Shown piece after piece: positions 8,763 through 54,436 of a stretch of 64,000 bases of DNA. The position numbers and the translations under genes are program-made. The notes beneath the pieces were generated by a model. It saw only the letters and a list, made by a program, of their open reading frames with translations, made no database searches and had not been told where the DNA came from. Positions within the stretch are counted from its first letter, which is position 1, and every line of letters starts with the position of its first letter. This stretch comes from Patescibacteria group bacterium (GTDB lineage: Bacteria; Patescibacteriota; Doudnabacteria; UBA920): NCBI GenBank assembly GCA_023484515.1, contig JAMDAY010000028.1:2544-66543 (forward strand), read 5' to 3'.

Positions 8763-9146
8763 TTGGAAAAATTAACCGAGAAACCCAAACCAATGACCAA
8801 ACCTCAAAAAATCTGGCTGTCAGTATTTTTAGCAATGTTCCTAATTCCTGAACTATTATGGAGCCCGATAGGGAATTTTGCGTATGAATGGTTCCAAAAT
8901 ACAAACTCAGTCGTTCCTTTAAGAAATAACTTTTTAATGGATCTTAACAATATTAACTGGTTTAGCAGCGTAGTTTTTATCCAAATGGCGGGATTGCTAT
9001 TGCTGGTTGTGTATTTATTAATAATTAATAAAAATATTAAAAACAAATTGGCTTTATGGTCTGGCATAGTTTTGTCTTTTATATTGCTGGTTGCAGCGTT
9101 TTTTACTTTTGGCCTTTCGGTTTCCCTAAGGCATATAGGGTTTTAA
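8763..9146 (+). CDS. small integral membrane protein
   Basis: Three predicted hydrophobic helices. Its stop overlaps the start of the downstream hydrolase gene, suggesting an operon. Confidence 0.5.
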   Translation: MEKLTEKPKPMTKPQKIWLSVFLAMFLIPELLWSPIGNFAYEWFQNTNSVVPLRNNFLMDLNNINWFSSVVFIQMAGLLLLVVYLLIINKNIKNKLALWSGIVLSFILLVAAFFTFGLSVSLRHIGF

Positions 9147-14651: not shown

Positions 14652-16766
14652 TTATTTTTTCCGTAGCTTTCGGATTTTTTTTACTTCGTTTAGACGGTCG
14701 CGAAGTTTGGCGGCCAGCTCAAATTCCAAATTTTTGGCGGCCAGGTCCATTTGTTCCCCCAGTTCTTCCAAGTAGAGCTTAAGTTCCTGGGCGTCCATTT
14801 TTAAAGGATCTATGCTGCCGGAAGACCGGACAGCATCCGCCTCCATACCCTTGGCTCCAGCCAGCCGGGTATCGGCAATGGCTTTTTTTATGGTTTGCGG
14901 AGTTATGCCGTGTTGTTTGTTATAAGCTTCCTGAAGCTTGCGGCGGCGGTTGGTTTCGTTTATGGCGCGATCCATGGAGCCGGTCTTTTTGTCCGCATAC
15001 ATAATAACGTGGCCGCGGACATGCCTGGCTGCGCGGCCCATCATTTGCATGAAAAAAGTTTCCGACCTTAAAAACCCTTCCTTGTCCGCATCCAAAATGG
15101 CCACCAGCGAAACCTCGGGCAAATCCAGGCCCTCGCGCAGCAAATTTATCCCCACCAGCACGTCGTAAACTCCCAAGCGCAAGTCGCGCAAGGTTTCCAA
15201 ACGTTCAAATGTGTCAACGTCGCTGTGCACGTAATGCACTTTTATGCCTTCTTCGTTCAGGTATTCGCTTAGTTCTTCGGCCATGCGCTTGGTCAGCGTG
15301 GCCGCTAATATCCTTTCATGGTTTTTTATCCGCCCGTTAATTTGTTCTATTAAGTCATCCACCTGGTTTTTAATGGGTTTGATTTCTATGGTCGGGTCAA
15401 GCAGGCCGGTAGGGCGGATAATCTGTTCTATGATGGAAGGGGGATTTAATGGTTTTGTAGGGGCCGCCTTTAGGCGCCCGCTATCATCGGACGGGCGGCT
15501 AAAGCTCGCCCCTACATTTTTCAACAATCGCTTTGGCCGAAAGTTCGCTTTTTGGGCAAGGGACGATTCAATTTCAAATTTGGCCGGCGTGGCGGAAACA
15601 AACACGGCTTGGGTTATTTTTTTTTCAAACTCGGCAAACTTTAACGGCCGGTTGTCCAGGGCGCTGGGCAGGCGGAAGCCGTAATCCACCAGCGTGGTTT
15701 TGCGCGACTTGTCGCCTTCGTACATGGCGCCAATCTGCGGCACGCTCTGGTGGGATTCGTCCAAAAACAGCAAAAAGTCGTCCGGAAAATAATCTATCAG
15801 GGTGGAAGGCGGTTCGCCCGGCGCGCGGCCGTCCAAATGCCGGGAATAATTTTCTATCCCCGCGACAAAACCGGTATTGGCCAGCATTTCCAAGTCAAAA
15901 TTCGTGCGCTGCTCCAGGCGCTGGGCTTCCAAAAGTTTGCCTTGGCTTTTAAGCTCCTTAAGCCTTTGGACCAGTTCCTGCCGAATGCTTTCCATTGCGG
16001 TTTGCAGTTTTTCTTCGGGCGTCACGAAATGCTTGGCCGGGAAAATGGTAAATTTTTCCAAGTCTTCCAGTTTCTCGTTGGTCAGGGCGTCCAGGCGCTC
16101 AATTTTCTCCACTTGGTCGCCAAAAAAATCCAGGCGGATAACCGTGTCCTCGGAAGACAAAATCAGCTCCACCACGTCGCCTTGGGCGCGGTAAGTTCCT
16201 CTTTGCAGATCCAGGTCATTGCGGTGGTATTGCAAGTCAGTCAGGCGGCGCAGCAGCTTGTCGCGCTTTACGGTTTCGCCGCGCTTAATTTCCATGGACA
16301 GGTCCAAATAGTCCGCCGGGTTGCCCAGGCCGTAAATGCAGGAAACGGACGCGCAAATTATCACGTCGCGCCGCGACAGCAGGGACTGCGTGGCCGCGTT
16401 GCGCAGGCGGTCAATTTCCTCGTTAATTTGCGTTTCCTTCTCTATATAAGTGTCGGTCCGGGGAATGTAAGCTTCGGGCTGGTAGTAATCGTAATACGAC
16501 ACAAAGTAGTGGACCGCGTTATTTGGGAAAAACTCCTGGAATTCGGCAGCGAGCTGCGCGGCCAAAGTCTTGTTGTGGGAAATAACCAAAGCCGGGCGCT
16601 GCAATTTTTGCACCACGTTGGCCATGGTAAAAGTCTTGCCTGAGCCGGTTACGCCCAAAAGCGTCTGGTATTTGCGGCCGGTTTGCAGGGATTTAATTAA
16701 GCCTTCTATCGCCCGGGGCTGGTCCCCGGCGGGTTGGAATTTGGATTTAAGCTTAAATTGGTTCAT
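14652..16766 (-). CDS. uvrB: excinuclease ABC subunit B, carrying an in-frame 60-bp REP-like insertion
   Basis: GVTGSGKTF Walker [11 protein letters not shown] and a C-terminal UvrB/UvrC interaction helix are present. The extra segment [23 protein letters not shown] is encoded by the palindrome at 15458-15517. Confidence 0.95.
15458..15517. repeat. REP-like GTAG-headed palindrome (TGTAGGGG...CCCCTACA), in frame inside uvrB
   Basis: tgtaggggccgcctttaggcgcccg...cgggcggctaaagctcgcccctaca. Closely similar to the copy at 21990-22046. Confidence 0.8.
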
Positions 16767-17947: not shown

Positions 17948-18120
17948 ACGGAATACGGATTGATACGGATAAAGGGTGAAGACGGCCTTCCGGGACCGGC
18001 CTTCTATAGTTAGGATGATGATAAACAATATCCAATAATTTAAAATCTGTTTGTCCCGGAAGGCCGTCTTCACTGCCAGAAAGGATCAAGCATTTTTCCG
18101 ATTCGTAATCCGTAAAGTTT
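17948..18120. repeat. palindromic non-coding cassette: ACGGAT-type repeats x3, 21-bp IR gtgaagacggccttccgggac, 57-bp spacer, matching IR, ATCCGT-type repeats x2
   Basis: The perfect 21-bp inverted repeats sit at 17976-17996 and 18054-18074. The hexamer arrays lie at both ends in opposite orientation. Confidence 0.7.
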
Positions 18121-20574: not shown

Positions 20575-20919
20575 ATGAAAATAGAAAGATTCGAGGATAT
20601 TATTTCTTGGCAGAAAGGTATTGACCTTGCTATTATTGTTTATGGTGTTCTAAAAAGTAATAGGGATTTAAGTTTTAAAGATCAAATCCAAAGGGCAGTG
20701 GTAAGTATTTCAAACAACATTGCGGAAGGGTATGAAAGAAAAAGCAATAAGGAACTTGCACAATTTTTATATATTGCCAAGGGTTCTGCTGGAGAAGTCA
20801 GGTCCATGGTCCATATGGCTTTGAGGTTAAAATACATTACCCCATCTCAATTTGACGATATCTATCAAAGATGTTTGGAAATTTGTCGGCTACTTTCAGG
20901 TTTTATAAAAACTTTATAG
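20575..20919 (+). CDS. four-helix-bundle protein (23S rRNA IVS-protein / Avd-like, TIGR02436-type)
   Basis: ...AVVSISNNIAEGYERKSNKELAQFLYIAKGSAGEVRS... matches the family signature. 114 aa. Confidence 0.75.
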   Translation: MKIERFEDIISWQKGIDLAIIVYGVLKSNRDLSFKDQIQRAVVSISNNIAEGYERKSNKELAQFLYIAKGSAGEVRSMVHMALRLKYITPSQFDDIYQRCLEICRLLSGFIKTL

Positions 20920-20925
20920 ATTAGA

Positions 20926-20962
20926 AACTTGATAAACTTGACGAACTTGAAACTTGATAACT
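20926..20962. repeat. right inverted-repeat arm (AACTTG units), reverse complement of 20528-20573
   Basis: aaacttgataaacttgacgaacttgaaacttgataac. Confidence 0.7.
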
Positions 20963-20965
20963 TTT

Positions 20966-21268
20966 ATGGTTTTATACATTGACACAACTGATTTTGGCAA
21001 GATAACGTTTGCCGCAACGGACGGGAAAAAATTGTGGAAAAAATCCTGCAAAATTGACCCGCATAAATCGCATGAGACTTTGGGATGTCTGGAAAAATTT
21101 TTCAAGGCAGGAAAGTTTAGCCGTAGTCAGGTCAAAAAAATTGTGGTCAACAAAGGGCCGGGCAGTTATACAGGAACCAGGATTGGGGTAACAATTGCCC
21201 AGGCTTTGGGTTTTGCCTGGGGCGTGCCGGTTAAGTTTTTGCCCAAGGACAAGATGCCTGCCTTGTAA
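20966..21268 (+). CDS. tsaB: TsaB (YeaZ)-like N-terminal fragment, truncated after ~100 aa
   Basis: MVLYIDTTDF...GPGSYTGTRIGVTIAQALGFAWGVPV matches the TsaB N-domain. The ORF stops early and repeat-rich DNA follows. Confidence 0.55.
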   Translation: MVLYIDTTDFGKITFAATDGKKLWKKSCKIDPHKSHETLGCLEKFFKAGKFSRSQVKKIVVNKGPGSYTGTRIGVTIAQALGFAWGVPVKFLPKDKMPAL

Positions 21269-21526: not shown

Positions 21527-21719
21527 CTGTCTCCTTTGAACACCACAACACGTGTTGTGGTGTTCCCGCCATATAGGCCAGGCGGGTCTGTAGTTGCCTG
21601 ATTCATCAGGCTCTTTGCAAAGCTGAGTGAACTAAGCGACTACAGCTTAAGGGGGCAAGGCTTAAGGTTTATTGGAGGTTTTTTAAGGTTCTTTTCCCTA
21701 TGGCATTGCGTCCCCTTGG

Positions 21720-21889
21720 TGTCATTGCGAGGCACGTCGCTCGCGAACGACGTGCCGAGGAGCCAGGGCTTTAACTGGGCCGCGAAGCAATCTATCATAA
21801 GCACAAGAAAAAGATTGCTTCGCTCGGATGCACTCGCGATGACACGCGGGATAGATTGCTTCGCTCGGATGCACTCGCTCGCAATGACA
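21720..21889. mobile_element. MITE-like element with TGTCATTGCGAG terminal inverted repeats (copy 1, 170 bp)
   Basis: TIR tgtcattgcgag at 21720 and ctcgcaatgaca at 21878. The internal blocks agggctttaactgggccgcgaagcaatct and ttgcttcgctcggatgcactcg are shared with the copy at 40425-40662. Confidence 0.65.
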
Positions 21890-21989
21890 CCGCGCTTTAT
21901 GCCAGTAATGACACCGCATTTTGCATGCCCATTGCAAGCCAGGTACCAGGCGGCACTGTGGCAAGGGGAGTTAATTACAAATTATCCTT

Positions 21990-22046
21990 TGTAGGGGCTG
22001 CCCTTTGGGCGCCCGAACTTGCGGGCAGCTAAAGCTTGCCCCTACA
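21990..22046. repeat. REP-like GTAG-headed palindrome (intergenic copy)
   Basis: tgtaggggctgccctttgggcgcccgaacttgcgggcagctaaagcttgcccctaca. Confidence 0.8.
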
Positions 22047-22170: not shown

Positions 22171-22206
22171 CTGTCCTTGTAGGGACAGGTCTAGACCTGT
22201 CCTTAC
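22171..22206. repeat. partial REP-like element containing the tgtaggg head and the gacaggtctagacctgtcc palindrome
   Basis: The same inner palindrome occurs in the valS-embedded copy at 48074-48131. Confidence 0.6.
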
Positions 22207-22665: not shown

Positions 22666-22908
22666 TTGTCTTCCCAAGAACAGTTGTCAATGCTGACTTC
22701 GGGCAAGCTGATTTCCATCAGCCAGGCCGCGACTTTAACTCCGTATAGTGCGGAGTATTTGAGTTTATTGGCCCGCAAGGGGAGACTGAATGCGATAAAA
22801 ATTTCCCGCGACTGGCTGACTACGGAAGAGGCGGTTAAAAATTACGTGGCCAAGCAGGTCAAGAAGCACGAAAAAATGCTCAAGATGCTGGAAGGAGGAA
22901 AAATATGA
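22666..22908 (+). CDS. excisionase-like helix-turn-helix DNA-binding protein (paralog A)
   Basis: TPYSAEYLSLLARKGRLNAIKISRDWLTTEEAVKNYVAKQVKKHEKML is nearly identical to the 31916-32146 product. HTH_17-like pattern. Its stop overlaps the start of the giant gene (ATGA). Confidence 0.6.
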   Translation: MSSQEQLSMLTSGKLISISQAATLTPYSAEYLSLLARKGRLNAIKISRDWLTTEEAVKNYVAKQVKKHEKMLKMLEGGKI

Positions 22909-25900
22909 AATCCTTCCTGCAAAAAATTGGGAATGCCTTGGGGTTAAGGCAGCAGCCCGTGGTGATTAACGCGAAGTTTATTACTCCCCAAAGCCTGAAA
23001 GAAAATTCCAAACCGGCAGCTCCGGCCTTTGCGGCTGCGCCCCGCGTCCCGGAGTCCCGGATCCCGGACAAAAACAAAACTGCGCCGCTTGCCCGCCAAA
23101 CCGCCAAGAGCGCGCCTATGGCCAAATGGATCGGAAAAATTCCCAGGCCGAAATTCGTTTTGGCCGTGCCCAAGCCGCACCGCGCTTTGGCAGTTGTGCT
23201 GGCCAAAACGTCAGTCGTTCCGTTTAAGCTGCCGCAGTTGCCCGCGCCCCTAAAAAACAAAATGCTGGCTAAATTGCCTAACCGCGTTTTGGCGGGTTTG
23301 GCTGTGCTGCTGTTTGCCTTAAGCATGTCCTTGTGGGGCGCGGCCAAAGAGATACAGATAAAGCATGCGGTTCCCGCAGGGGTCAACTCCGGAATCCTGA
23401 AATCTTTGTCGTTCAGTATCCCTAATAATTTTTCAAACAACGGGCATTCAGGCAGCTCTGTTTCAGCGGCTGGCCAGCGCATTTATCAGCGCCCATTTGG
23501 CAAATACGAAAATTTGCCGGCCAAAGAAAAAGCAGTATTTTATCCAAGCAACGACAACCTTCATTTGCTGTCGTTGTTTACCGGCGGCATTGGCAACTGG
23601 TTCGGATATTTTGGAGGATTGCGGGCAGAGTATGCGCCGTATAAATACGCAGCGCAAAATAATTCAAAAGGCGAAGCGGTTAGCCGCCATGCGGATTTAG
23701 TAAAAGGCAGGGATTCTGAATTTGTTGGCCAGGCGGGCGGGGCCCCTAAGCTGCCAGTTGGGACAATAAATTTTTCAGCCAGGCTGCAAGCGGTTAAAAT
23801 TTCCGCCCGCACGCTGGCTTTGGTTTGGACGGATTTTCTGTTCCGCCATCCGGCCATAAATTTTGCAAGCCTGCAAAGCGCGGCCCAAAATTGGAAGACG
23901 GACATTAGCCGGTCGCTTAAGACAGGCGTTGCCGCTTTTGCCGGCGTGGGCAAATCGGACGCGCAAATTTGGGGGCAAGCTTTAACCTGGCAAATAAGCG
24001 TCCGGAAAAATTTGCCGGAAGCGGCAGACAGCCAACGCGTTGCCAGCCAGGATACAATTGCACGTTATTTTGTAACATTGCAAAACTTTAACTTAAAGGC
24101 GAAGCAGTCTTTTGCTGAAATAAAGACTGCCGCGGTTTCATATTTTAAAGTTAAAGATATTAATTTCCGCAATGACGCGGCAAGCGGCCGCGTCCAAAAG
24201 GGAGAAGTCTTGGGCGCGGTAGACTATCCCGCCGGCCAGGAATCAAAATTTATAAAAATTTTCACCAATGGAGTAGGGGAGTGGTTTAAAATTTTGCCCG
24301 ATGTAAAATATTCGGAGGCTAATCAACAGCAAAAAGCCGGCAAAGGCATGGTGCTGGGCTTGTCGTCCGCCAAGGAGAACAATTCTTCTACCGTGGGCAG
24401 TATTTCCTTAAATCGGCTGGCGCAAAAGAGCTTGCAAGGACTTAATAATGCGGCAGCCTGGGAAACAAGGCAGTTGGTAAAGTTGGCAAATTTTGGAAAA
24501 GTCGCAGCCAAAGGGGTGGGAAAAGTTTGGGGGCAGGTTGCCGGCGCGGGAAAAGGCGCCTGGAACCGCGCGGTGGCAACGGCAGGACATATTTTGCAGA
24601 CCGGCAGCGAAGAAAATGTTTTGCCTTTAATTACGCATGACAAGTTTGGGCAAATGGTGGGGAACAATGGGCCGGCAGGCAATGGCGAAGCCGCGAACTT
24701 AAATTCCCAAACGCCGCAAACCGGTCCAGAGGCCGGGCATTCGGCAGCCGCCATTTCCCAACCGGCAGGCGCGCCCAACGCGGGCAGCGGCAGGCCGGCG
24801 TCTGCAGCCGTTTTAACGGCCGTTGACCCCATGTTTGTTAACCGGCTAATTGACGCGCGGCTTAACCAGTATTTGGCCGAAGGCAAATTTAAAGGCGAAA
24901 AGGGCGAAAAAGGAGACAAGGGAGACAAGGGGGACACCGGCTTAATTACTAACCCCGCAACCAACCAGTCTTCCGCGGTTGTGGGCGGCTATCCCATTGT
25001 CACTTATGTTCCTCCGGTTCCCGCCCAGGGATTTGCCGGCACTTCTTTGGCGGGCTTTGGCAATTTGTCCGCTGCAATTTTGTCAGTCTCTGACCAGACA
25101 AGCTTAAACAATCTTACTGTTACCGGCAATGTCAGTTTGGCTACCACGACCGTTACCAGTTTGACTATTGCCAGGATAAATCCGCAATTCACCGCCGGCT
25201 CTGTTGTTTTTCAAGGATCTTCCGGCCTGGCCCAGGACAACAGCAACTTCTTTTACGATGAAACTAACCATAGATTGGGAATTGGCACCAGCACTCCGTT
25301 AACCGTGTTGGAAATTGACGCTACGGACGCTTTGCGCATTCCGGTGGGCAACACCGCGCAGAGGCCGGCCGTGGCTTTAACCGGCCAAATCCGCTATAAC
25401 CTGACCACGCACCAGTTTGAGGGTTACGGCAACAATAGCGTCTGGCAGGGTTTGGGCGGGGTTATTGATGCCGACCAGGACACTTACATTACGGCGGACA
25501 CGAGCAATGCCGACGAAGATACCTTGCGCCTGTTCACTTTGGGCAACGAGCGCTTGACCGTGACCAGCGCCGGCAATGTTGGCATTGGCACGACCACGCC
25601 GGGCTATGCCTTAACCGTGGTTGGCGACGGTTACTTTACGGGCAATGTTAACATTGGCCAAAACTTGACCGTAAATGACGGGGCGGTAATCATTGGCAGC
25701 GCTACCACGACCAGCCTGACCGTAAATGCGGCCATTGCTTCCAATTTAATTCCCGATGGCAACAATACCAGAAGCTTGGGGAGCGCTTCCTATTTCTGGA
25801 GCGATTTATACGTGGGCGAGTTGCATGCCAACTTGATTTCCGACGCCTCTTCCACTTTAAGCGGCACGCTTTCCGACAGCTTTACCATTAACAGCGACAA

Positions 25901-28900
25901 TGCCAGCGCCGATGCCGAAAACGCGGATTTAATCTTCTTCCGCGGCGCCTCCGGGGCAGACCCTAACGCCTTAATTTCCTGGAATTCTACAGCCAAGCGC
26001 TTTGACTTAAACCAGCCAACTTTTATCCAGAACGCCTCGCCTTCCACCACAACCATTCCAACTTTGCTGCTTCAAGGCTCTGTCAGCCAAACCGCGGATA
26101 TTTTCCTCGCAGCCTCTTCCTCCGGCACTTCCTTGTTTAATATCACTTCCTCCGGCAACGTCGGGATAGGGACGACGGCACCAAGCCAGTTGTTGACGGT
26201 TGGTAATAACAATCAGTTTACGGTTAGTAGTTCTGGTGCAGTTGTGGCCGCTGGGCAGATTCAAGCCAATTCACTTTATACTCTCGGAAATGTGTATGGG
26301 TACGGTTTCCAAAGTGTTAATGGACCCTCGCAATCTTACATTGACATGACAAGTTATAGTAAAGCTATAGCATTTTCAGCCAGTTCCACAGAGGTAATGA
26401 GGTTAACAGGAAACGGCAATATCGGCATCGGCACCACATCGCCAGCGAACAAGCTAACGGTGGTTGATGCGGATACAACCTCCCCGGCGGGGATAGGTTC
26501 GATTAAGCTTACCCAGAATATTTCAAATCCTTACGAATTATTTATGGGTGTCAACAGCACCTATGACAACAACGAAGGAAACGGAGCCGCGTATATACAG
26601 GCGCAGCATTCGGGGGTGAATGTTTCCGGTCTGCTGCTTAACCCGAACGGAGGCCGCGTGGGCATTGGGGTGCTTCATCCTCAATCCGCGTTGGATGTCA
26701 ATGGCGGAATGAGTATTGGTTCTTACGCCGGAACCAACACGGCTCCATCGAATGGATTAATAGTAAGCGGCAATGTGGGCATCGGGACAACAAGTCCGGC
26801 GGCGAAGTTGGATGTCGTTACTTCCAGTAATAATGAAATGAGGTTTTTGGACCAGATGACCTATGGTACTGCAAGCAGCAGCAATGCCACCGGATTGTTT
26901 CTGACCACTCCAACTTATAATAACGGCGGCGGACCGTCTATTGCTTTCGGCCGCGGCACAGGAATCAATGCTACGGAAATGTGGGAGACCGGCATAGACT
27001 ATCGCGGCGGCGGCAATTTGTGGAGCGGCGGCGGAGCGGGCGCATATATTTTAGCCTATCAATGGGAACCCAACGGCCAGTCGGCGGACCGCATCGCCGT
27101 CAAACCTTACGGCCAAACTTCTATTGGTCTGCCGGATGCCGGCTTGAGCCAGTTTACTGCCCAGTTAGAAATTAGAAATCAAATAGCTAGTTTGCCAGTG
27201 GAGATTCTTTACCCCAATTTGACCCAAAGCGGCGATGTCTGGCAGGTACGCACTACGAACAATGGTTCGTCGGCCATTTCTATACCTTCCGGCGCTGTGG
27301 ACGCTTCCAACGCTAACGCTATCGTTCCAATTTTAAGATTAATGCATCCCTCCGCTGCTAGCGGCGTCGGTAATGGCGCAGCCATTGATTTTGTCGCCTC
27401 TTCCGATGGCACGACCATTGGATCAGAAATCGCCGGGACGCGCGCGGCTTCAGGGGGCTGGGGTAACTTGCAGTTTTTGACTCGCAACGGTTCGGGTCTT
27501 TTGGAACGCATGAGGATAGATAATAACGGCAACGTCGGGATTGGGACAACAGGTCCCACATCGGCATTAGAGGTTACGTCTGGCTCTGGAAATGCTTCTG
27601 TAAAATTAAGTTCAAATGCTTATGGCGGAGTAATAAGTACTGCCTCGGGCAGCAATAGCGGATACTTGTATCTAACGCCAGTCGGACGGGTGGTTAGCTT
27701 GTACGATAATACCAACGCTTATAAATTGAATATTTATAACGGCAGTAATGCTGAGTTTTCGTTTGATTCAAACGGCAATAGCTGGTTAAACGCAACCACC
27801 GGCAACGTGGGCATCGGGACGACGAGTCCTGGGGCAAAGTTGCATGTATATGGGACAGATTATACCGGTGCCATTTTTCAAAACACCAATCCTGCCAATT
27901 TTGGGTATAACCAGTTTACTAACGCTGGTGCGGCCACTTCGTATCAATACTGGTTTGGTAATACGTATAGTTCTGCAACGAATAGGTATGTTCCATCATC
28001 ATTCTTGCTCGACGCAGCAGGGACAGGCGGTTTAGGTTTGGCCGCTTCAAATGCTTCTGGGGCTATTCGCTTTTATACTGGTGGGGATAATGAAAGGGTC
28101 AGGATAGATAATAACGGCAACGTCGGGATTGGGACGACGAGCCCAAGCACTAAGTTAGAAGTTTGGGATGGCAATGATGGTTCTGGCGGAGTTATTACTG
28201 CCAAGGACGGCGGAGCTATATTAATGGCCGCTGATAGTAGCTATCCGTTGCAAGTTGGAAATAACACCGGAGGCGCCAATAATATTAGATTCCGTATCGG
28301 ATCGGATGGCACTATTGATTGGAACAACAATAACAGTGCTATTCCCACGATAACTTTGCCGACAAACAAATATCTGGCAGTATCGGGTGGAAATGGAATG
28401 ACAATAGCTGGCAACGTCGGAATTGGGACGATAAATCCGGCGGAATTGCTTGATGTGGCAGGTAACATCCGGCTGACAAACTTTAGGACCCATAATGTTA
28501 CCAGGACTTTAAGTTCTGCTATTAACGGGGTGGTAGATATTGGCACCTTCAACTTCACGTTGGGCGCGGGGGAGTTGGACGTAACCATAGTCACGCAAGG
28601 CACAGGCTACTCTATTGCTAAAACTTACAGAATCCCGGTCAGATATGATGCTACAAGCAATGCTTGGAAAATTGTATTGCCTAATTACGATTCCGGAGTA
28701 TATTCTGGAAATAATTTCCAACTGGAGGTTAAAGTCGGCACTACGAATGCCTCTTTGCGTATTCGCTCGTTGACTGCCAATTCAGCGACCGCTTATATTA
28801 CCATCCAGCAAAATGGCTTGAATAGCGACAGTTTTACCGAATCCACAGCCACTTCCACCGAGGCGGCTATTACCCAGACTTATACTTACACCCCGGTTGC

Positions 28901-30632
28901 ATTTTATAACGGTAATCTGGGAGTGCAAGTTGCCGCGCCAGATGCTGAATTGCAGGTAAATTCAATGCCTGTAAACAAGGGTTCTTATTCATTGTCAAAC
29001 TGGAACAGTACCGGCTCCAGAGCCGCTGCGTTTTTTGCCACGCCGAATAACAACGGGGGCAACAGCTTGGCCAGCGCGGAACCGGCTTTGATCTTGGGCA
29101 GGGAGGGTGTAACAGGCCAATCTTATGCCAATTTTGCGGAATTTAAACTGGCACATTACGAAGTTTCGGGCACAGACGCCCGTACCAGGATGGATATTGC
29201 TTTGACACACGGAGCGGGCGATGCAGCCGGAACTAACGTTATGAGCTTGCTAAGCAACGGCAACGTCGGGATTGGCACTACCTCTCCTTCCCAAAAGCTG
29301 GATGTCTGGGGCAATTTGAACGTCGCTACGTCAACTACGCCTGCATTGTTTGTGAACACAGCCACGGGAATGGTGGGAATTGGAACCGCGACGCCTGGGC
29401 ATCTTATTACACTTTCCGGCGGCGCTTATAGCGACGGCGCGACTTGGGAAAACGCTTCGGACGTAAACTTAAAGGAAAACTTTATTGACCTTGACCCGGC
29501 GGAAATTTTAACCAAGATAAATTCCTTAAAAGTCAGCCAGTGGAATTATAAGACGGACAAGAGCATCTCCTATATTGGCCCGACCGCCCAGGACTTTTAT
29601 TCCACATTTAACGCCTTGCGCCCCAGCAGCTCGCCGACCTCCATTTCCACGGTGGACCCGGCAGGCGTTGCATTGTTGGGAATACAGGCTTTGGACAATA
29701 AATTCAACAATTTACAATTGACGATCAGTAATTTACAGGGAAGCCTGATGAATCAGGCAACTACGACTAATCTTGCTGTTTATAACCCTTCCAACTTCTC
29801 GGGCGACAGCGTGGGCCAGGCCAAAATTTTGTCCGGCGCGACCAGCACTTTGGTTTCCTTCCAAAACGCCTACCAATACCAGCCCATAGTTACCCTAACT
29901 CCGGCCGGCCCTTACACCGCCCGCTACTGGGTGGAAAACGCCAACGCAAACGGCTTTACCGTAGTTTTGGAACACGCGGAAGAATACGACGTTACCTTTA
30001 ACTGGCATTCGTTTGCCAGCCCCGAAGCGAAATTAACGGTCAGCGACGGCACCACGCTGGACATTGTTTTGGTTTTGCCGCCGGCCGACCCGCCGCCTCC
30101 GGCCGCGCCTTTGGTGGTGCAGCCTGCGGCGGGGGACGCTACAGGCGGCTCTGCCGGTAGCAATCTTACAGACACTAATCCTCCTGCCGGAGGCGCAGAT
30201 GGTTCTTCCGGCGACAACCTTTCTCCGGACGACTCTTCTAACAACAGCCTTTCCGGCGACAACCTTCCCGCAGGGGATCTCTCAGGAAATACTTCCGGCA
30301 ATAATCCTCCCGCAGACAGCCTTTCCGGCGGTAATCTTACAGACATTAATCCTCCGGCAGGGGATGGAACAGGGGAAGGCGATCCGTCCGCTGATGGGTC
30401 TGCTTCTTCCGGCCAGCAAGGCCAGGTTTCCGGCGCAACCACAATTTCGGGCGATTCCACTTCGGCAAGCACTGAAACTGCATCCGGCGGCGACAGTTCT
30501 GCCGCCGGCAGCGATTCGTTGTCCGGCAGCGGTTCGGGCCCTACAGATACCTCTGCCGGTGTAGATGCCTCCACCGGCGCCACAGACGCATCCGCCGGCA
30601 CTACGGACGCCTCTTCCGGAAGTACACCGTAA
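22905..30632 (+). CDS. giant cell-surface tail-fibre-like protein: TM anchor, collagen-like GEKGEKGDKGDKGDTG, ~11 NVGIGTT repeats, Peptidase-S74 intramolecular chaperone domain, P/S/G/D-rich tail
   Basis: GGAGG RBS upstream. Repeated GNVGIGTTSP..KL.V units. The C-terminal SDVNLKENFIDLDPAEIL...YIGPTAQDF matches the S74 autoprocessing-domain motifs (SDxxLKxNI, GxxAQ). Confidence 0.85.
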   Translation: MKSFLQKIGNALGLRQQPVVINAKFITPQSLKENSKPAAPAFAAAPRVPESRIPDKNKTAPLARQTAKSAPMAKWIGKIPRPKFVLAVPKPHRALAVVLAKTSVVPFKLPQLPAPLKNKMLAKLPNRVLAGLAVLLFALSMSLWGAAKEIQIKHAVPAGVNSGILKSLSFSIPNNFSNNGHSGSSVSAAGQRIYQRPFGKYENLPAKEKAVFYPSNDNLHLLSLFTGGIGNWFGYFGGLRAEYAPYKYAAQNNSKGEAVSRHADLVKGRDSEFVGQAGGAPKLPVGTINFSARLQAVKISARTLALVWTDFLFRHPAINFASLQSAAQNWKTDISRSLKTGVAAFAGVGKSDAQIWGQALTWQISVRKNLPEAADSQRVASQDTIARYFVTLQNFNLKAKQSFAEIKTAAVSYFKVKDINFRNDAASGRVQKGEVLGAVDYPAGQESKFIKIFTNGVGEWFKILPDVKYSEANQQQKAGKGMVLGLSSAKENNSSTVGSISLNRLAQKSLQGLNNAAAWETRQLVKLANFGKVAAKGVGKVWGQVAGAGKGAWNRAVATAGHILQTGSEENVLPLITHDKFGQMVGNNGPAGNGEAANLNSQTPQTGPEAGHSAAAISQPAGAPNAGSGRPASAAVLTAVDPMFVNRLIDARLNQYLAEGKFKGEKGEKGDKGDKGDTGLITNPATNQSSAVVGGYPIVTYVPPVPAQGFAGTSLAGFGNLSAAILSVSDQTSLNNLTVTGNVSLATTTVTSLTIARINPQFTAGSVVFQGSSGLAQDNSNFFYDETNHRLGIGTSTPLTVLEIDATDALRIPVGNTAQRPAVALTGQIRYNLTTHQFEGYGNNSVWQGLGGVIDADQDTYITADTSNADEDTLRLFTLGNERLTVTSAGNVGIGTTTPGYALTVVGDGYFTGNVNIGQNLTVNDGAVIIGSATTTSLTVNAAIASNLIPDGNNTRSLGSASYFWSDLYVGELHANLISDASSTLSGTLSDSFTINSDNASADAENADLIFFRGASGADPNALISWNSTAKRFDLNQPTFIQNASPSTTTIPTLLLQGSVSQTADIFLAASSSGTSLFNITSSGNVGIGTTAPSQLLTVGNNNQFTVSSSGAVVAAGQIQANSLYTLGNVYGYGFQSVNGPSQSYIDMTSYSKAIAFSASSTEVMRLTGNGNIGIGTTSPANKLTVVDADTTSPAGIGSIKLTQNISNPYELFMGVNSTYDNNEGNGAAYIQAQHSGVNVSGLLLNPNGGRVGIGVLHPQSALDVNGGMSIGSYAGTNTAPSNGLIVSGNVGIGTTSPAAKLDVVTSSNNEMRFLDQMTYGTASSSNATGLFLTTPTYNNGGGPSIAFGRGTGINATEMWETGIDYRGGGNLWSGGGAGAYILAYQWEPNGQSADRIAVKPYGQTSIGLPDAGLSQFTAQLEIRNQIASLPVEILYPNLTQSGDVWQVRTTNNGSSAISIPSGAVDASNANAIVPILRLMHPSAASGVGNGAAIDFVASSDGTTIGSEIAGTRAASGGWGNLQFLTRNGSGLLERMRIDNNGNVGIGTTGPTSALEVTSGSGNASVKLSSNAYGGVISTASGSNSGYLYLTPVGRVVSLYDNTNAYKLNIYNGSNAEFSFDSNGNSWLNATTGNVGIGTTSPGAKLHVYGTDYTGAIFQNTNPANFGYNQFTNAGAATSYQYWFGNTYSSATNRYVPSSFLLDAAGTGGLGLAASNASGAIRFYTGGDNERVRIDNNGNVGIGTTSPSTKLEVWDGNDGSGGVITAKDGGAILMAADSSYPLQVGNNTGGANNIRFRIGSDGTIDWNNNNSAIPTITLPTNKYLAVSGGNGMTIAGNVGIGTINPAELLDVAGNIRLTNFRTHNVTRTLSSAINGVVDIGTFNFTLGAGELDVTIVTQGTGYSIAKTYRIPVRYDATSNAWKIVLPNYDSGVYSGNNFQLEVKVGTTNASLRIRSLTANSATAYITIQQNGLNSDSFTESTATSTEAAITQTYTYTPVAFYNGNLGVQVAAPDAELQVNSMPVNKGSYSLSNWNSTGSRAAAFFATPNNNGGNSLASAEPALILGREGVTGQSYANFAEFKLAHYEVSGTDARTRMDIALTHGAGDAAGTNVMSLLSNGNVGIGTTSPSQKLDVWGNLNVATSTTPALFVNTATGMVGIGTATPGHLITLSGGAYSDGATWENASDVNLKENFIDLDPAEILTKINSLKVSQWNYKTDKSISYIGPTAQDFYSTFNALRPSSSPTSISTVDPAGVALLGIQALDNKFNNLQLTISNLQGSLMNQATTTNLAVYNPSNFSGDSVGQAKILSGATSTLVSFQNAYQYQPIVTLTPAGPYTARYWVENANANGFTVVLEHAEEYDVTFNWHSFASPEAKLTVSDGTTLDIVLVLPPADPPPPAAPLVVQPAAGDATGGSAGSNLTDTNPPAGGADGSSGDNLSPDDSSNNSLSGDNLPAGDLSGNTSGNNPPADSLSGGNLTDINPPAGDGTGEGDPSADGSASSGQQGQVSGATTISGDSTSASTETASGGDSSAAGSDSLSGSGSGPTDTSAGVDASTGATDASAGTTDASSGSTP

Positions 30633-33935: not shown

Positions 33936-33948
33936 TGAAAACAAAAAA

Positions 33949-33985
33949 CAATGGGCACCATTGTGCTGCACAATGGTGCCCATTG
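33949..33985. repeat. REP hairpin caatgggcaccattgtg-ctg-cacaatggtgcccattg, immediately upstream of RAYT-1
   Basis: 17-bp perfect arms. Confidence 0.8.
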
Positions 33986-33998
33986 TAACCAGCTTAAT

Positions 33999-34652
33999 AT
34001 GAATAACCGGGATTATAAATTTTTTGCGCCCAATACAATCCATCATGTATACAACCGCGGAAATGGTAAAATGGATATTTTTAGGGACGGACAGGATTTT
34101 GCAAATCTGATTAAAAGAATAGCTTTAACTTTAGGCAAGGCGAAAGAGACCGCAACGGTGCCCATTGGCTGCCAATGGGCACCGTTGCGTATTGCGCCTT
34201 TTCCAAAGAACGCTTTTACCATACTGTGTTATTGCCTTATGCCTAACCATTTTCACTTCCTTATCAGGCAGAATACTGAAATTGCGATAAGTGATTTTAT
34301 TTCAAAACTTTGCAGTAGCTATGGTAAATTTTTTAATAAAAAATACGAACACGCTGGCGGCTTGTTCCAAGATCAGTTTAAAGCTGTGCGCGTTGAAAAT
34401 GATTCCCAGTTACTGTGGGCATCCGCCTACATCCACAACAACCCCAAAACCGCCGGACTTGTCCAAAAGTTGGAAGATTATGCCTGGAGCAGTTATTTGG
34501 ATTATATCGGCAAGCGGCAGGGAACTTTGTGCGACAAGGAATTTATTTTAAAGATGATCGGCGGCGCGGAAAAGTATAAAAGATTTACGGAAGGCGGCTT
34601 TGAAAAAATCAAGGGGAGAAAAGAATTGGAACATTTGCTGCTGGATAATTAA
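33999..34652 (+). CDS. REP-associated tyrosine transposase (RAYT, IS200/Y1 HuH family), copy 1
   Basis: HHVYNRGN and YCLMPNHFHFLI (HuH) motifs. The start was chosen at MNNRDYK by alignment to copy 2. An internal REP hairpin at 34151-34189 is translated as TATVPIGCQWAPLRIAP. Confidence 0.8.
   Translation: MNNRDYKFFAPNTIHHVYNRGNGKMDIFRDGQDFANLIKRIALTLGKAKETATVPIGCQWAPLRIAPFPKNAFTILCYCLMPNHFHFLIRQNTEIAISDFISKLCSSYGKFFNKKYEHAGGLFQDQFKAVRVENDSQLLWASAYIHNNPKTAGLVQKLEDYAWSSYLDYIGKRQGTLCDKEFILKMIGGAEKYKRFTEGGFEKIKGRKELEHLLLDN
34151..34189. repeat. REP hairpin cgcaacggtgcccattgg-ctg-ccaatgggcaccgttgcg, inside the RAYT-1 ORF
   Basis: 18-bp perfect arms. Shares the ggtgcccattg core with the upstream hairpin. 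Confidence 0.8.
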
Positions 34653-40347: not shown

Positions 40348-40405
40348 TGTAGGGGCGGGCATTGCCCGCCCGCCACAGAACGGGCGGCCGATGGCCGCCC
40401 CTACA
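40348..40405. repeat. REP-like GTAG-headed palindrome in the rpoB-rpoC spacer
   Basis: tgtaggggcgggcattgcccgcccgccacagaacgggcggccgatggccgcccctaca. Confidence 0.8.
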
Positions 40406-40424: not shown

Positions 40425-40662
40425 GTCATTGCGAGGTCAGGGCTTTATCTGGCCGAAGCAATCTTTTCCTTATGATATAGTAAGTAAAATAATTTTTTAG
40501 CCTTCAATAGCGACAGCCAAATACGAGTGCATTGTAGTTGCCTGATTTATCAGGCTCAAAGGGCCCCATAAATGGGGCAACTACGCAAGGGGCGGCTAAA
40601 AATTTATTTGATTCACTATAGTTTGCTTCGCCCCTCGGATGCACTCGGGGCTCGCAATGACA
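40425..40662. mobile_element. MITE-like element with TGTCATTGCGAG terminal inverted repeats (copy 2, 238 bp)
   Basis: TIRs at 40425-40436 and 40651-40662. The internal blocks match copy 1. It also contains gtagttgcctgatttatcaggctc, which has a related sequence at 21590. Confidence 0.65.
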
Positions 40663-40857
40663 TAAAAAAAGCGCCGCGTCCGTCCTTGCCCGAAGGCAAA
40701 TCGGATTTTCAATAATGTTGAAATTTAAAAAATTTAAGAATTGGGCATTTATTGGAAATTAGAAATTGGGAATTTGAAATTTTTAACTACAAATTATCAA
40801 ATAGCCACTAAAGTGGCAAAGCCATCAAGTATTAATTTTTAAGAAGAACGTTAATTT

Positions 40858-45483: not shown

Positions 45484-46713
45484 ATGAATAAACTCCAAAT
45501 TTCCCAACGCGCGCAAAAGATAATTGCTTCTCCCATAAGGAAGTTTTTGCCATTGATGCTGGAAGCGGAAAAACGGGGGATTAAAATATATAAGATCAAC
45601 GTGGGCGACCCGGATTTATTGCCACCGCCGGAATTTTACCGGGAAATAAAACGGCATTTGGCCGGCAATTTGGGTTATGCTCCTTCTCCCGGCATTGCCA
45701 GCCATGTGGCAGCCTGGCAGGAATATTACAGTCAAATGGGCGTAAATTTGCAGCCGGGAAATATTATCCCCACGCAGGGCGGCGCAGAAGCTATTTTACT
45801 GGCCATGCAGGCCGTGGCAGACCAGGGCGACGAGGTGGTAGTGTTTGAGCCTTTGTATGTCAGTTACCGGTCCTTTGCCGCCATGGCCGGCATTAAGCTG
45901 GTGCCCGTAACGTTGTCTATTGCCAACAACTTTAGCCTGCCTTCCGTTTCAGTTTTGAAAAATAAAATCACTAGCAGAACAAAGGCAATTGTAATTGTGA
46001 ATCCTGACAACCCCACAGGCAAGCTATGGAGCAAAAAAGAACTGGACCAGATAATCCAGGTTGCCAAAAAACATAACCTCTATATTATTTCCGACGAAAC
46101 TTACCGCGAAATTAGGTTTGACGGCAAAAAATTTTCCTGTCTTTTGACGCGCAAGGATGCCGCGGAAAATATAATATTATGCGACAGCGTGTCTAAGCGT
46201 TTTTCCATGCCCGGCGCGCGCATTGGCTGCGTGGCCAGTTTTAACAAAGAGATAATGTCAAGCGTGCTCAAGTTTGCCCAGGCCAGGCTTTCCGCCGGAA
46301 CTTTGGAACAGTTGGCCCTAGTTCCGCTGATAAAAAATAGCCGCTCCTATACCCGGAAAGTCCAAAAAGAATATTTGCGGCGGCGCAACGCGGTGGCAGC
46401 GGGCTTAAAAAATATTCCCGGCGCCGTATTCCGGCCGGCCCAGGGCGCATTTTACCAGGCCGTAAAACTGCCGGTTAAGTCCGCTGAGGATTTCGTAAAA
46501 TTTATGATCAGCGAATTCCAATACAAAGGCGCTACCGTCATGGTCACGCCCATGAAAGATTTCTACCTGACGCTGGGTTTAGGCGAAAATGAAGTCCGCA
46601 TAGCTTATGTGCTGAATGTTAAAGATTTGTCCGCAGCCATGGATGTTTTGCACAGAGGACTAATAGCATATAAAACGAGTCCCTTGAAGAGACCCTTCAA
46701 GGGGACCACATGA
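45484..46713 (+). CDS. class I/II PLP-dependent aminotransferase
   Basis: SKRFSMPGARIG (PLP-lysine region). About 409 aa. The last codons run into the REP hairpin at 46681-46704. Confidence 0.75.
   Translation: MNKLQISQRAQKIIASPIRKFLPLMLEAEKRGIKIYKINVGDPDLLPPPEFYREIKRHLAGNLGYAPSPGIASHVAAWQEYYSQMGVNLQPGNIIPTQGGAEAILLAMQAVADQGDEVVVFEPLYVSYRSFAAMAGIKLVPVTLSIANNFSLPSVSVLKNKITSRTKAIVIVNPDNPTGKLWSKKELDQIIQVAKKHNLYIISDETYREIRFDGKKFSCLLTRKDAAENIILCDSVSKRFSMPGARIGCVASFNKEIMSSVLKFAQARLSAGTLEQLALVPLIKNSRSYTRKVQKEYLRRRNAVAAGLKNIPGAVFRPAQGAFYQAVKLPVKSAEDFVKFMISEFQYKGATVMVTPMKDFYLTLGLGENEVRIAYVLNVKDLSAAMDVLHRGLIAYKTSPLKRPFKGTT
46681..46704. repeat. REP hairpin cccttgaagagacccttcaagggg (upstream flank of RAYT-2, within the aminotransferase 3' end)
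   Basis: Arms cccttgaag / cttcaaggg. Confidence 0.8.
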
Positions 46714-47390
46714 AATATAGAGATTACAAGGTGTTTGCACCGGGAGGATATTATCATGTATATAATCGCGGTGTAGCTAAAACTGATATCTTTTTAGACG
46801 ATGACGACCGCAAATTTTTTCTATTTCGCCTTAAAGAATATTTGTTTCCCTTGAAGGGTCTCTTCAAGGGAAAAAGGCAGAATTTACCTGGAGGGGCGGC
46901 AATTGTGGCCGAAACCCATACCCCTTATAAAAGAAAAATGTTGCCTCCAGACAGTTTTTCCTTGCTTTGTTATTGCCTTATGCCTAACCACTTCCATTTT
47001 CTTATTAGGCAGGAAGGTGTGTTGGAGGTCCGGAAGCTGTTGGCTAAAGTTTGCACCAGTTATTCTAAATTTTTTAACCAAAAATATGGAAGAGTTGGAA
47101 GCTTATTTCAGGATGCCTTTAAAGCCATTTCTGTAGAAAATGATCCGCAACTCCTTTGGGTTTCATCATACATCCATAATAATCCAAAAACAGCTAACCT
47201 TGTCGATAACCTAACTGATTATCCTTGGAGCAGCTATTTGGATTATATCGGCAAGCGGCAGGGAACTTTGTGCGACAAGGAATTTATTTTAAAGATGATC
47301 GGGGGCGCGGAAAAGTATAAAAGATTTGCGGAAGACAGCTTTGCGAAAATAAAGGAAAGGAAAGATTGTGAAGGATTATTTTTAGATTAA
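46710..47390 (+). CDS. REP-associated tyrosine transposase (RAYT), copy 2
   Basis: YHVYNRG and YCLMPNHFHFLI motifs. The 3' ~100 bp are about 95% identical in DNA to RAYT-1. An internal REP copy at 46848-46870 encodes LFPLKGLFKGK. Confidence 0.8.
   Translation: MKYRDYKVFAPGGYYHVYNRGVAKTDIFLDDDDRKFFLFRLKEYLFPLKGLFKGKRQNLPGGAAIVAETHTPYKRKMLPPDSFSLLCYCLMPNHFHFLIRQEGVLEVRKLLAKVCTSYSKFFNQKYGRVGSLFQDAFKAISVENDPQLLWVSSYIHNNPKTANLVDNLTDYPWSSYLDYIGKRQGTLCDKEFILKMIGGAEKYKRFAEDSFAKIKERKDCEGLFLD
46848..46870. repeat. REP hairpin cccttgaagggtctcttcaaggg inside the RAYT-2 ORF
   Basis: Same arms as the flanking copies. Confidence 0.8.
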
Positions 47391-47392
47391 AT

Positions 47393-47417
47393 CCCCTTGA
47401 AGGGTCTCTTCAAGGGG
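47393..47417. repeat. REP hairpin ccccttgaagggtctcttcaagggg (downstream flank of RAYT-2, inverted loop relative to the upstream copy)
   Basis: Loop gggtctct versus agagaccc upstream. Confidence 0.8.
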
Positions 47418-50586: not shown

Positions 50587-51714
50587 TTAAAGCTCCAAGT
50601 TCGGGTCTGCCTTTACAGCCTTGTAGCTTTTTGGTTTATAACCGTTAAACAGCATGAAAGCCGCGGCCATGCCTATTATTTCCGCGTTGTCGCCGGTTAG
50701 GGACAAGGGAGGGGCGAAAAATTTTAAATTGAAGGTTTTAGATTTTAGATTTAAAGATTTTCGGAGCGCAAGGTTTGCCGAAACGCCGCCGGACAGGCTT
50801 ATGGACCTGGCTTTAAATTCATTGGCTGCGCGCAGGGTTTTGGCAGCCAGCACGTCAACCACGGCCTGCTGGAAGGAAGCGCATACATTAGTTTTTAGCT
50901 TATAGCTTTTAGCTGTTGGGGGATTATCGCGTAAATAGTAAAGCACTGCGGTTTTCAGGCCGGCAAACGAAAAGTTGTAATCTTTGGAATTAATCATGGG
51001 CCGCGGGAAATTTATGGCTGCAGGGTTTCCTTTGGCGGCCAATTTGCCAATTTGCGGACCGCCCGGATAAGGGAGGCCTAAAAGTTTTGCCACTTTATCA
51101 AAAGCCTCGCCTGCCGCGTCGTCCACGGTCTGGCCCAGGACTTTGTAATGTTTAATATCTTCCATTAATACTAAAATCGTATGGCCGCCGCTTACGATGA
51201 GGCTGATCATGGGGAAAAAATTAGCTTTTAGCTTATAGCTTTTAGCTGTTAGTCGGCCAAAAGGCGAATAGAGGTGGCCGGACAAATGATTAACCGGAAT
51301 AACAGGTTTGCCCGTAGCCAGCGACAGCGCCTTGGCGAACTCCACGCCTACGATTAGCGAAGGAATAAGGCCAGGACCGGCCGTGACCGCAATATAATCA
51401 ATTTGGCTTAAAACGTCCTCGCCGTTTTTGCAACTCAATTTTTGACGGCCGTCAAAAATTGAGTTGCAGGCGCCGGTTAAAGCTTTTTTTACGACCGGCA
51501 AAATATTTTTCACGTGCGCGCGGGCCGCCGCTTCGGGCACCACGCCGCCCATTTTGCTGTGCAGGCTAATTTGTGATTTTACCACCGAAGACAGGGTTTT
51601 AATCTTGGGGAAGCCCGCTGCAGAGCCTGAATTTTCCAGGCGCAAGACCGCCGCGGCTGTTTCGTCGCAACTGCTTTCTATGGCAAGGATGGTTTTACGG
51701 TTTTGTACGGTCAT
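50587..51714 (-). CDS. tsaD: tRNA N6-adenosine threonylcarbamoyltransferase TsaD, with in-frame lysine-rich repeat insertions
   Basis: ILAIESSCDETAAAV and the HLSGH metal site are present. The repeat ttagcttatagcttttagctgtt occurs twice (50892-50916 and 51220-51244) and encodes TAKSYKLK. Confidence 0.85.
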   Translation of the reverse strand: MTVQNRKTILAIESSCDETAAAVLRLENSGSAAGFPKIKTLSSVVKSQISLHSKMGGVVPEAAARAHVKNILPVVKKALTGACNSIFDGRQKLSCKNGEDVLSQIDYIAVTAGPGLIPSLIVGVEFAKALSLATGKPVIPVNHLSGHLYSPFGRLTAKSYKLKANFFPMISLIVSGGHTILVLMEDIKHYKVLGQTVDDAAGEAFDKVAKLLGLPYPGGPQIGKLAAKGNPAAINFPRPMINSKDYNFSFAGLKTAVLYYLRDNPPTAKSYKLKTNVCASFQQAVVDVLAAKTLRAANEFKARSISLSGGVSANLALRKSLNLKSKTFNLKFFAPPLSLTGDNAEIIGMAAAFMLFNGYKPKSYKAVKADPNLEL

Positions 51715-54219: not shown

Positions 54220-54436
54220 GGGGTCTTTCCAATCTTTATCCCACATAAATTTTCCCTATGCCGGAAGGCGCGCCTTCCGGCATAGGGAAGCATTGCTGTC
54301 TTGCGCAAATTCCGAGGCGTAACTCCCCACAACTCCCCAAAGCCTTGATAAATTAAGGGAAATATGTTAAACTGACAAAGCTGTTGAGGTTGCGGAAATT
54401 TTTAAATTTTAAATTTTCAATCTTTAAATTTATCTT

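Follow-up and report, generated by a model that had tools for sequence, protein, structure and literature searches.

GTAG-headed REP dimers within the uvrB and valS reading frames of a Patescibacteria genome

How a palindromic repeat can come to lie within the reading frame of a conserved gene, and which enzyme may have carried it there, is the question raised by a stretch of 64,000 nucleotides (hereafter the window) from the genome of a Patescibacteria group bacterium (GenBank assembly GCA_023484515.1, contig JAMDAY010000028.1, positions 2,544 to 66,543). In this window the uvrB and valS genes each carry an element with TGTAGGG and CCCTACA ends inside an intact open reading frame (ORF). A first-pass annotation of the sequence had taken such elements for repetitive extragenic palindromic (REP) sequences inserted in frame into two essential genes and tied to a resident REP-associated tyrosine transposase (RAYT). 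We find them to be REP sequences of the GTAG-tagged type, joined as tail-to-tail dimers similar to bacterial interspersed mosaic elements (BIMEs) and to REPINs.

Anatomy and distribution of the GTAG-headed repeats

The window (47% G+C) was searched for the dimer motif TGTAGGG-N(20-50)-CCCTACA. By this approach, four matches were found in the window and none in 100 dinucleotide-preserving shuffles used as the control. In total, nine units were located at five loci, as four dimers of 57-61 bp and one single unit of 29 bp. A 61-bp dimer at 15456-15516 lies in frame in uvrB, where it accounts for 20 residues on the minus strand of the gene, and a 58-bp dimer at 48074-48131 lies in frame in valS, also on the minus strand, where it encodes VGTGLDLSSKEGGSRPSPT. 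The spacer between rpoB and rpoC holds another 58-bp dimer (40348-40405), 31 bp past the rpoB stop codon. The two remaining loci, a 57-bp dimer at 21990-22046 and the single unit at 22178-22206 (TGTAGGGACAGGTCTAGACCTGTCCTTAC), are found in one repeat-rich stretch without a convincing gene. The first-pass annotation had listed five complete palindromes of 36-60 bp. Four of these are the dimers, with the starts at 21990, 40348 and 48074 correctly given and that of the uvrB copy, listed as 15458, off by 2 nt; the fifth, listed at 22171, is the single unit, the outer end of which reads CCTTAC instead of CCCTACA. The 25-mer that starts this unit, TGTAGGGACAGGTCTAGACCTGTCC, matches the gene-proximal arm in the valS copy at every position and thus occurs at two unlinked loci.

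All nine units start with TGTAGGG, followed by a stem of 8-9 bp with a loop of 2-4 nt, and at four of the five loci they are paired in inverted orientation with the layout 5'-T-GTAG-GG-hairpin / spacer of 6-11 nt / hairpin-CC-CTAC-A-3'. When folded as single-stranded DNA, every copy was more stable than its shuffles (z-scores of -3.6 to -7.2). In the uvrB copy (-24.4 kcal/mol, z -6.4) and the rpoB-rpoC copy (-29 kcal/mol, z -7.2) both arms pair together into one long hairpin, a feature of the REPIN type. In the valS and 21990 copies a closing GTAGGG/CCCTAC stem surrounds two inner hairpins, which form separately because the arms are not complementary to each other. No consistent flanking direct repeat indicative of target-site duplication was apparent, on reading the sequence, at any of the four window dimers, and an identity as miniature inverted-repeat transposable elements was rejected on this ground. 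Rfam at the gathering threshold returned two tRNAs only and no family for the GTAGGG elements. Taken together, the anatomy, the excess over shuffles and the folding bear out the original assignment to GTAG-headed palindromes of the REP type.

To define the class beyond the window, a pattern was derived from four units (TGTAGGGRMNGSTCNNGASCNNYCC) in which four stem pairs were left unconstrained. This pattern matched 90 contigs of a viral collection and at least 120 metagenome contigs, which differ widely in G+C content. Among the matches listed, 25 of the 31 distinct metagenome units were perfect hairpins and the other six had one mismatch; the viral contigs led to the same result. Covariation was scored on ten units of 25 nt, in which all 90 of 90 cells were paired. 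Each of the nine stem pairs was paired throughout, four of the nine changed on both sides, and the covariation score was 0.454 compared to 0.124 in shuffles; sliding the partners reduced the paired cells to 31-53%. Since six of these ten units had been picked from the viral scan as perfect hairpins, the unbiased count of 25 in 31 is the better statistic. A MAFFT alignment of 21 units was structurally inconsistent, because the units differ in length. The class is thus characterized by a GTAGGG head, a stem of 8-9 bp, a GGTC..GACC apex that is invariant in most members, and a variable, covarying mid-stem. The REP of Pseudomonas putida has the same TGTAGGAGC-stem form. Units of this kind are also present in relatives of the window organism (contigs L001, L003 and L081-L084), and identical 25-mers recur in unrelated contigs. 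With the same 25-mer at unlinked loci of the window, units in relatives and matches in public contigs, the element is a dispersed family, as first proposed, and not one peculiar to these loci. We conclude that the GTAGGG hairpins are a widespread class of the GTAG-REP superfamily. As a separate observation, the unit TGTAGGGAACGGTCTTGACCGTTCC was found in L087, L088 and about 60 other viral and metagenome loci, mostly from the human gut, and looks like one conserved locus beside a Cys-rich coding end.

The in-frame copies in uvrB and valS

The uvrB ORF (14652-16766, minus strand, 704 aa) and the valS ORF (47726-50182, minus strand, 818 aa) are both intact. The element falls in UvrB within a lineage-specific loop of residues 403-443, and in ValS within a loop between KLWNIARFVLAN and the motif T[DE]ADKEI (TDADKEI here). 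Both copies are read as GTA GGG ... CCT ACA, and alignments with 119 homologs of each protein reveal conserved protein sequence in the same frame on both sides of each insert. This frame has no stop codon in either orientation of any dimer, apart from one orientation of the 21990 copy, and the frame that reads the GTAG head as TAG is closed in every case. The open frames and the conserved flanks confirm the in-frame read-through noted at first pass. The gain of about 20 residues ascribed to each gene holds for the REP DNA itself, with 19-20 encoded residues. Compared with the closest relatives, each protein is lengthened by less: the loop of UvrB measures 39 aa versus about 27-34 aa in those relatives, and that of ValS exceeds the minimal loop found in relatives by about 12-13 aa. 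Nor are both host genes essential, as had been assumed, since uvrB is normally not an essential gene. Self-splicing and translational bypass were rejected because the frame is open and continuous, and an intein was rejected as no intein domains are found in the window UvrB. The inserts are presumably translated, with UvrB and ValS function retained, and would yield peptides such as EGGSRPSPTTDADK.

Other insertions were seen in these two proteins. ValS residues 431-526 comprise about 80-95 extra residues (SDKEAFHFKS...KFSWDLKQESRWKDKN...AERFIGEKPPQ) that are missing in most of the 119 homologs and in which no palindrome was seen. The UvrB homolog P0090 (1226 aa) has intein and LAGLIDADG Pfam domains inside UvrB, and in the homolog P0072 the same loop holds a GEGEG-type repeat with a copy of a 21-residue segment on each side.

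The inserts were placed in the proteins by alignment to solved structures. The UvrB loop lies between SATPxxFEIExSLxQ and an 11-residue stretch, and residues 403-443 fall between chain residues 404 and 406 of solved UvrB structures, where two matched stretches adjoin, and by alignment have no counterpart there. This site we take to be the junction of domains 1a and 3 as in the Bacillus caldotenax structure. The ValS insert maps to a loop that is already present in 1GAX and 4XKZ, where the anticodon-binding domain begins. Both host sites are inter-domain junctions (UvrB 1a/3 and the start of the anticodon-binding domain of valyl-tRNA synthetase), and the inserts occupy loops that are lineage-specific and hypervariable. 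An AlphaFold2 model of UvrB, based on a 42-sequence alignment, had a mean predicted local distance difference test (pLDDT) score of 58.7, with insert residues 411-437 as coil at pLDDT below 50, and is as a whole too weak to use. Alignment, as had been suggested, places both inserts in loops.

The explanation that we consider probable is that GTAG-REP dimers have been spread by a RAYT and are translated in permissive loops. By analogy with the REP/RAYT and IS200/IS605 systems, copies would be moved as single-stranded hairpins by an HUH-type Y1 transposase (RAYT), without target-site duplication. As Patescibacteria genomes are compact and have little intergenic space, many insertions would hit genes, and the survivors would be only those in permissive, already variable surface loops. 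The survivors would also be limited to the stop-free frame GTA GGG ... CCT ACA, the only usable one, since another frame reads TAG in the GTAG head. Read in this way, the DNA would simply be translated, to form a loop of about 20 residues that runs Val-Gly...Pro-Thr.

The same sites were compared in relatives, the nearest named ones by UvrB and ValS being Candidatus Doudnabacteria; both window proteins are 100% identical to NCBI entries for 'Patescibacteria group bacterium'. A contig scan with UvrB returned about nine Patescibacteria loci, the window's own genome not among them. At the valS site, a dimer is present in L081 (GCA_038203095.1), while L082 and L083, from two independent assemblies, each have a single unit. 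At the uvrB site, L084 carries a dimer with the same 3' junction (CCCTACA/AAACCnTTAAA), one arm of which has decayed, and L003, with a UvrB 71% identical, carries two dimers in the loop. The segments of relatives are thus encoded by palindromic DNA, as in the window. When the window and L081 valS copies were compared, two stem differences were found in the left arm, both compensatory, and the right arms were identical at 25 of 25 positions, with 64-72% identity in the flanking valS DNA. In the 119-homolog alignments, the uvrB and valS sites are free of any element in many relatives that are equally close. Palindromes of unrelated families occupy the valS loop of L298 (GTCATTGCGAGG...CTCGCGATGAC) and of L299 (CCCTCTCCC-TTT-GGGAGAGGG); the former lies in frame at 2820-2905 and translates as VIARSAADEAILPQEKIASDALAMT. 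Since other species carry unrelated palindrome families there, the uvrB and valS loops seem to act as permissive sinks, and the GTAGGG copies at orthologous sites are either under constraint or renewed again and again.

Several points weigh against RAYT-spread dimers that persist as passive passengers. Occupancy of the same sites in several species, together with the identity of 25 of 25 arm positions, is more easily reconciled with constraint or re-seeding. Among the relatives compared no clean empty site turned up, and the loops are hypervariable, so the boundaries of the insertions, and the insertion event itself, are deduced. The window copy number is low (nine units at five loci), and within the 64 kb there is no RAYT flanked by GTAGGG REPs. 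Translation of the inserts and function of the proteins are predictions from sequence, and the AlphaFold2 model is too poor to place the UvrB insert on the surface, the loop location being taken from the alignment to solved structures.

The strongest of the rival explanations, which we nonetheless judge unlikely, is that the intragenic copies persist for a role as nucleic acid at fixed positions between domains: hairpins of mRNA or single-stranded DNA might, for instance, make translation or replication pause, or be bound by a RAYT or some other protein. Such maintenance would explain why the palindromy has survived speciation. Consistent with it, the valS site is occupied in three lineages and the uvrB site in two, the differences in the left stem are compensatory beside a right arm that is far better conserved than its flanks, both sites are domain junctions, and RAYT genes retain their own palindrome as an in-frame copy (see below). 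By contrast, the many close relatives without any element at these sites and the decayed arm in L084 uvrB argue against a maintained role, and the unrelated palindromes found at the same sites in other species fit a permissive sink. Moreover, because identical 25-mers are found in unrelated contigs, replacement by fresh copies of the family explains the conservation equally well.

Resident and linked transposases

The first-pass annotation had correctly counted two Y1 (RAYT-like) transposase genes in the window, both on the plus strand: RAYT1 (ORF 33951-34652, with a probable start at ATG 34000) and RAYT2 (ORF 46710-47390). The two are paralogs of 58% identity with the HUH motif PNHFHFL and the tyrosine motif YIHNNP, and both match Pfam Y1_Tnp above the cut-off. 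Each is associated with a palindrome of its own that has no GTAG head. For RAYT2 this is CCCTTGAAG-N6-TTCAAGGG, present upstream in inverted orientation (46681-46703), downstream (47394-47416), and once more in frame inside the gene (46848-46870), where it encodes FPLKGLFKG. For RAYT1 it is a perfect palindrome of 19+19 bp with the core CAATGGGCACC, found upstream (33948-33986) and in frame inside the gene (34151-34189); the 3' flank has a different hairpin. The internal copies occupy the same protein position in both paralogs, between YHVYNRG and PNHFHFL, and match the flank palindrome of their own gene, while the palindrome sequence differs between the paralogs. A homolog on contig L175 (2964-3721, 66% identical, from the genome of L081) has the same plan with sequences of its own, including palindromes on both sides and an internal palindrome that is longer than, and related to, that of its flanks.

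Mobilisation of the GTAGGG elements by one of these resident enzymes, the tie originally proposed, is in our estimate improbable, and somewhat less likely than maintenance of the copies. In its favour, both ORFs have the Y1_Tnp domain with the HUH and tyrosine motifs, their best NCBIfam match is REP_Tyr_transpos, RAYT2 ends 684 bp from the valS copy, and similar hairpins could be substrates in trans for related enzymes. Their scores against REP_Tyr_transpos, however, are 56 and 48 bits with a cut-off of 80. No GTAGGG units flank RAYT1 or RAYT2, such that the REPtron arrangement is not seen in the window; the palindromes that adjoin these genes are instead unrelated and repeated inside each ORF, and the plan of the L175 homolog is the same. 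Likewise, no RAYT of the window type was detected near GTAGGG units in viral contigs by tblastn and profile search.

Elsewhere the REP class is linked to another RAYT clade. Among the matches listed, genes of this clade were found on five of 120 metagenome contigs that had been selected solely by the REP pattern. They have the motifs MPNH[FI]HGI...KSLSxxIGAFK...WQRSFYD...NP, score 60.6 bits with REP_Tyr_transpos, and match a profile of the window Y1 family weakly (E of 1e-4 or worse). The gene in L282 is flanked by TGTAGGGACAGGTC units with heads that face the gene (1808-1838 and 2419-2520), and is thus a REPtron. In four further contigs an in-frame GTAGGG...CCCTAC palindrome lies just past the HUH motif (L253, 3744-3772; L242, 924-1030; L204, 6501-6530; L292, 2965-3060); that of L253 translates as VGTGRDLSL, with related peptides in L242, L204 and L292. 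The Patescibacteria member of the clade, in L009, is located directly upstream of uvrB and has instead a perfect palindrome at 9106-9140, GTCGGGGCAATTC-AT-GAATTGCCCCGAC, which is preceded by C and so reads as a CGTC tag. No gene of the linked clade is present in the 64-kb window. The gene neighbourhoods thus support a REP-RAYT link for the REP class, though not for the resident genes. Returning to spread by a RAYT, the mobilising enzyme is probably not one of the two window Y1 transposases, which carry other palindromes, and most probably a RAYT of the linked clade that is encoded elsewhere in the genome or has already been lost.

An assembly artefact is unlikely, and the broader alternative of chimerism or of a local origin by template switching with a chance likeness to REPs is highly improbable: although the genome is metagenome-assembled and mis-assembly can create palindromes, both full-length proteins are recorded under NCBI and Logan sources, family members occupy these sites in the assemblies of other samples as well, the identical 25-mer occurs at unlinked loci, and hundreds of structured matches in public contigs stand against zero dimers in shuffles.

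Relation to known repeat systems and significance

In-frame insertion of this kind had been thought to be known mainly from Rickettsia, a view that has to be dropped because a study of 2013 had already described intragenic REPs in the genes for UvrABC and tRNA synthetases. GTAG and CGTC REPs located wholly inside ORFs were reported from several phyla, more than half of the intragenic REPs being dimers or grouped repeats with a coding length of 20-30 aa (Di Nocera, De Gregorio & Rocco 2013, BMC Genomics 14:522; PMC3733652). According to the same study, intragenic REPs are enriched in genes for excinuclease ABC (including R. conorii uvrB), uvrD, polA, recBCD and tRNA synthetases, and two Xanthomonas species have different REPs at about the same recB site (PMC3733652). 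Further in-frame fusions by small repeats are listed in reviews (PMC3184786, PMC10969869). The window elements resemble these intragenic REPs in their GTAG head, short GC-rich stem-loop, inverted pairing, dimers in the range of 20-30 aa, and excinuclease and synthetase hosts (PMC3733652). They differ in that the host phylum, Patescibacteria or candidate phyla radiation (CPR), lies outside that study and that the window has no REPtron; the intragenic share is two of five loci, compared to a minority in the published genomes, and the host loops are lineage-specific, hypervariable and common to other repeat families, unlike the published cases (PMC3733652).

Work by Ton-Hoang in 2012 is said to have dealt with E. 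coli REP/BIME sequences and TnpA-REP. The arrangement of two inverted REPs around a short spacer is shared with the REPIN/RAYT system (Bertels & Rainey 2011, PMC3116915) and with E. coli REP/BIME (Nunvar 2010, PMC2817692). Also REPIN-like are the single long hairpins of the uvrB and rpoB-rpoC copies and the flanking of a RAYT by the same REP class in L282. Unlike REPINs, the arms of the valS and 21990 copies make separate hairpins, the window population is small and heterogeneous instead of near-identical, and a cognate RAYT was not found in the window. The Rickettsia palindromic elements (RPEs) are similar in behaviour, being palindromes in frame in housekeeping genes, presumably in surface loops. 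As RPE-1 (Ogata et al. 2000) is summarized in PMC10969869 and PMC3733652, it is about 100-150 bp, lacks a GTAG head and belongs to alphaproteobacterial intracellular hosts; RPE-4 and RPE-6 correspond to CGTC-type REPs (PMC3733652). The two window Y1 genes and the L175 gene are for their part similar to TIRYT/TIRtron (PMC3733652), as they adjoin self-complementary non-GTAG repeats (RAYT1 upstream only), and unlike them in having an in-frame internal palindrome at one fixed position.

Other repeats were also noted in the window. A second GTAG-headed family, GTAGTTGCCTGATTCATCAGGC, occurs at 21590-21611 in the repeat-rich stretch and as a dimer in the rpoB-rpoC spacer (40534-40584), with an exact 22-nt copy (29743-29764) in frame in a 2575-aa ORF (22905-30632), where it encodes SLMNQATT. 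The family found in the L298 valS loop is represented as GTCATTGCGAGG...GAAGCAATC and GATTGCTTCG...CTCGCAATGAC at 21722-21905 and 40426-40665, and fills the stretch without a convincing gene at 21.3-22.9 kb and the rpoB-rpoC spacer. Perfect palindromes with a CCGGAAGGC/GCCTTCCGG core lie between ruvA and a femAB-like gene (17976-18073) and 150 bp upstream of a tRNA gene (54252-54289). The interval 20575-21268 holds a gene for a '23S rRNA intervening sequence protein' (PF05635) and, after it, a 104-aa fragment that partially matches the TsaD family; a full-length tsaD is found at 50587-51714.

Our literature search returned no paper that pairs Patescibacteria or CPR with REP or RAYT. Translated GTAG-REP dimers are thus already known in other bacteria, and Patescibacteria is a phylum for which the literature searched holds no earlier report. 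Of greater interest are two leads, conservation at orthologous sites and the palindromes that RAYT genes carry within them; the REP/RAYT literature searched makes no mention of the latter. As a tentative proposal, to which we give a small chance of being right, intragenic REP hairpins of Patescibacteria may be maintained functional elements, not tolerated junk, that are kept across species in housekeeping genes at loops between domains by compensation or constant re-seeding, and the RAYTs' own palindromes may point to a circuit of self-recognition or autoregulation. If true, this would be a hairpin-based self-recognition or autoregulation not described for REP/RAYT, with two unrelated RAYT clades each keeping its own palindrome in frame. 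The REPs at orthologous sites and the RAYT-internal palindromes are in any case test cases for selection on REP structure. For annotation, odd low-complexity segments in CPR proteins of the forms 'VG...PT', 'GEGWGEG' and 'VIARS' may be understood as translated repeats, and for phylogenetics such segments should be masked. With this finding, the range of intragenic REPs comes to include the candidate phyla radiation, in whose very compact genomes conserved proteins seem to offer landing sites for several palindromic families in their variable loops.

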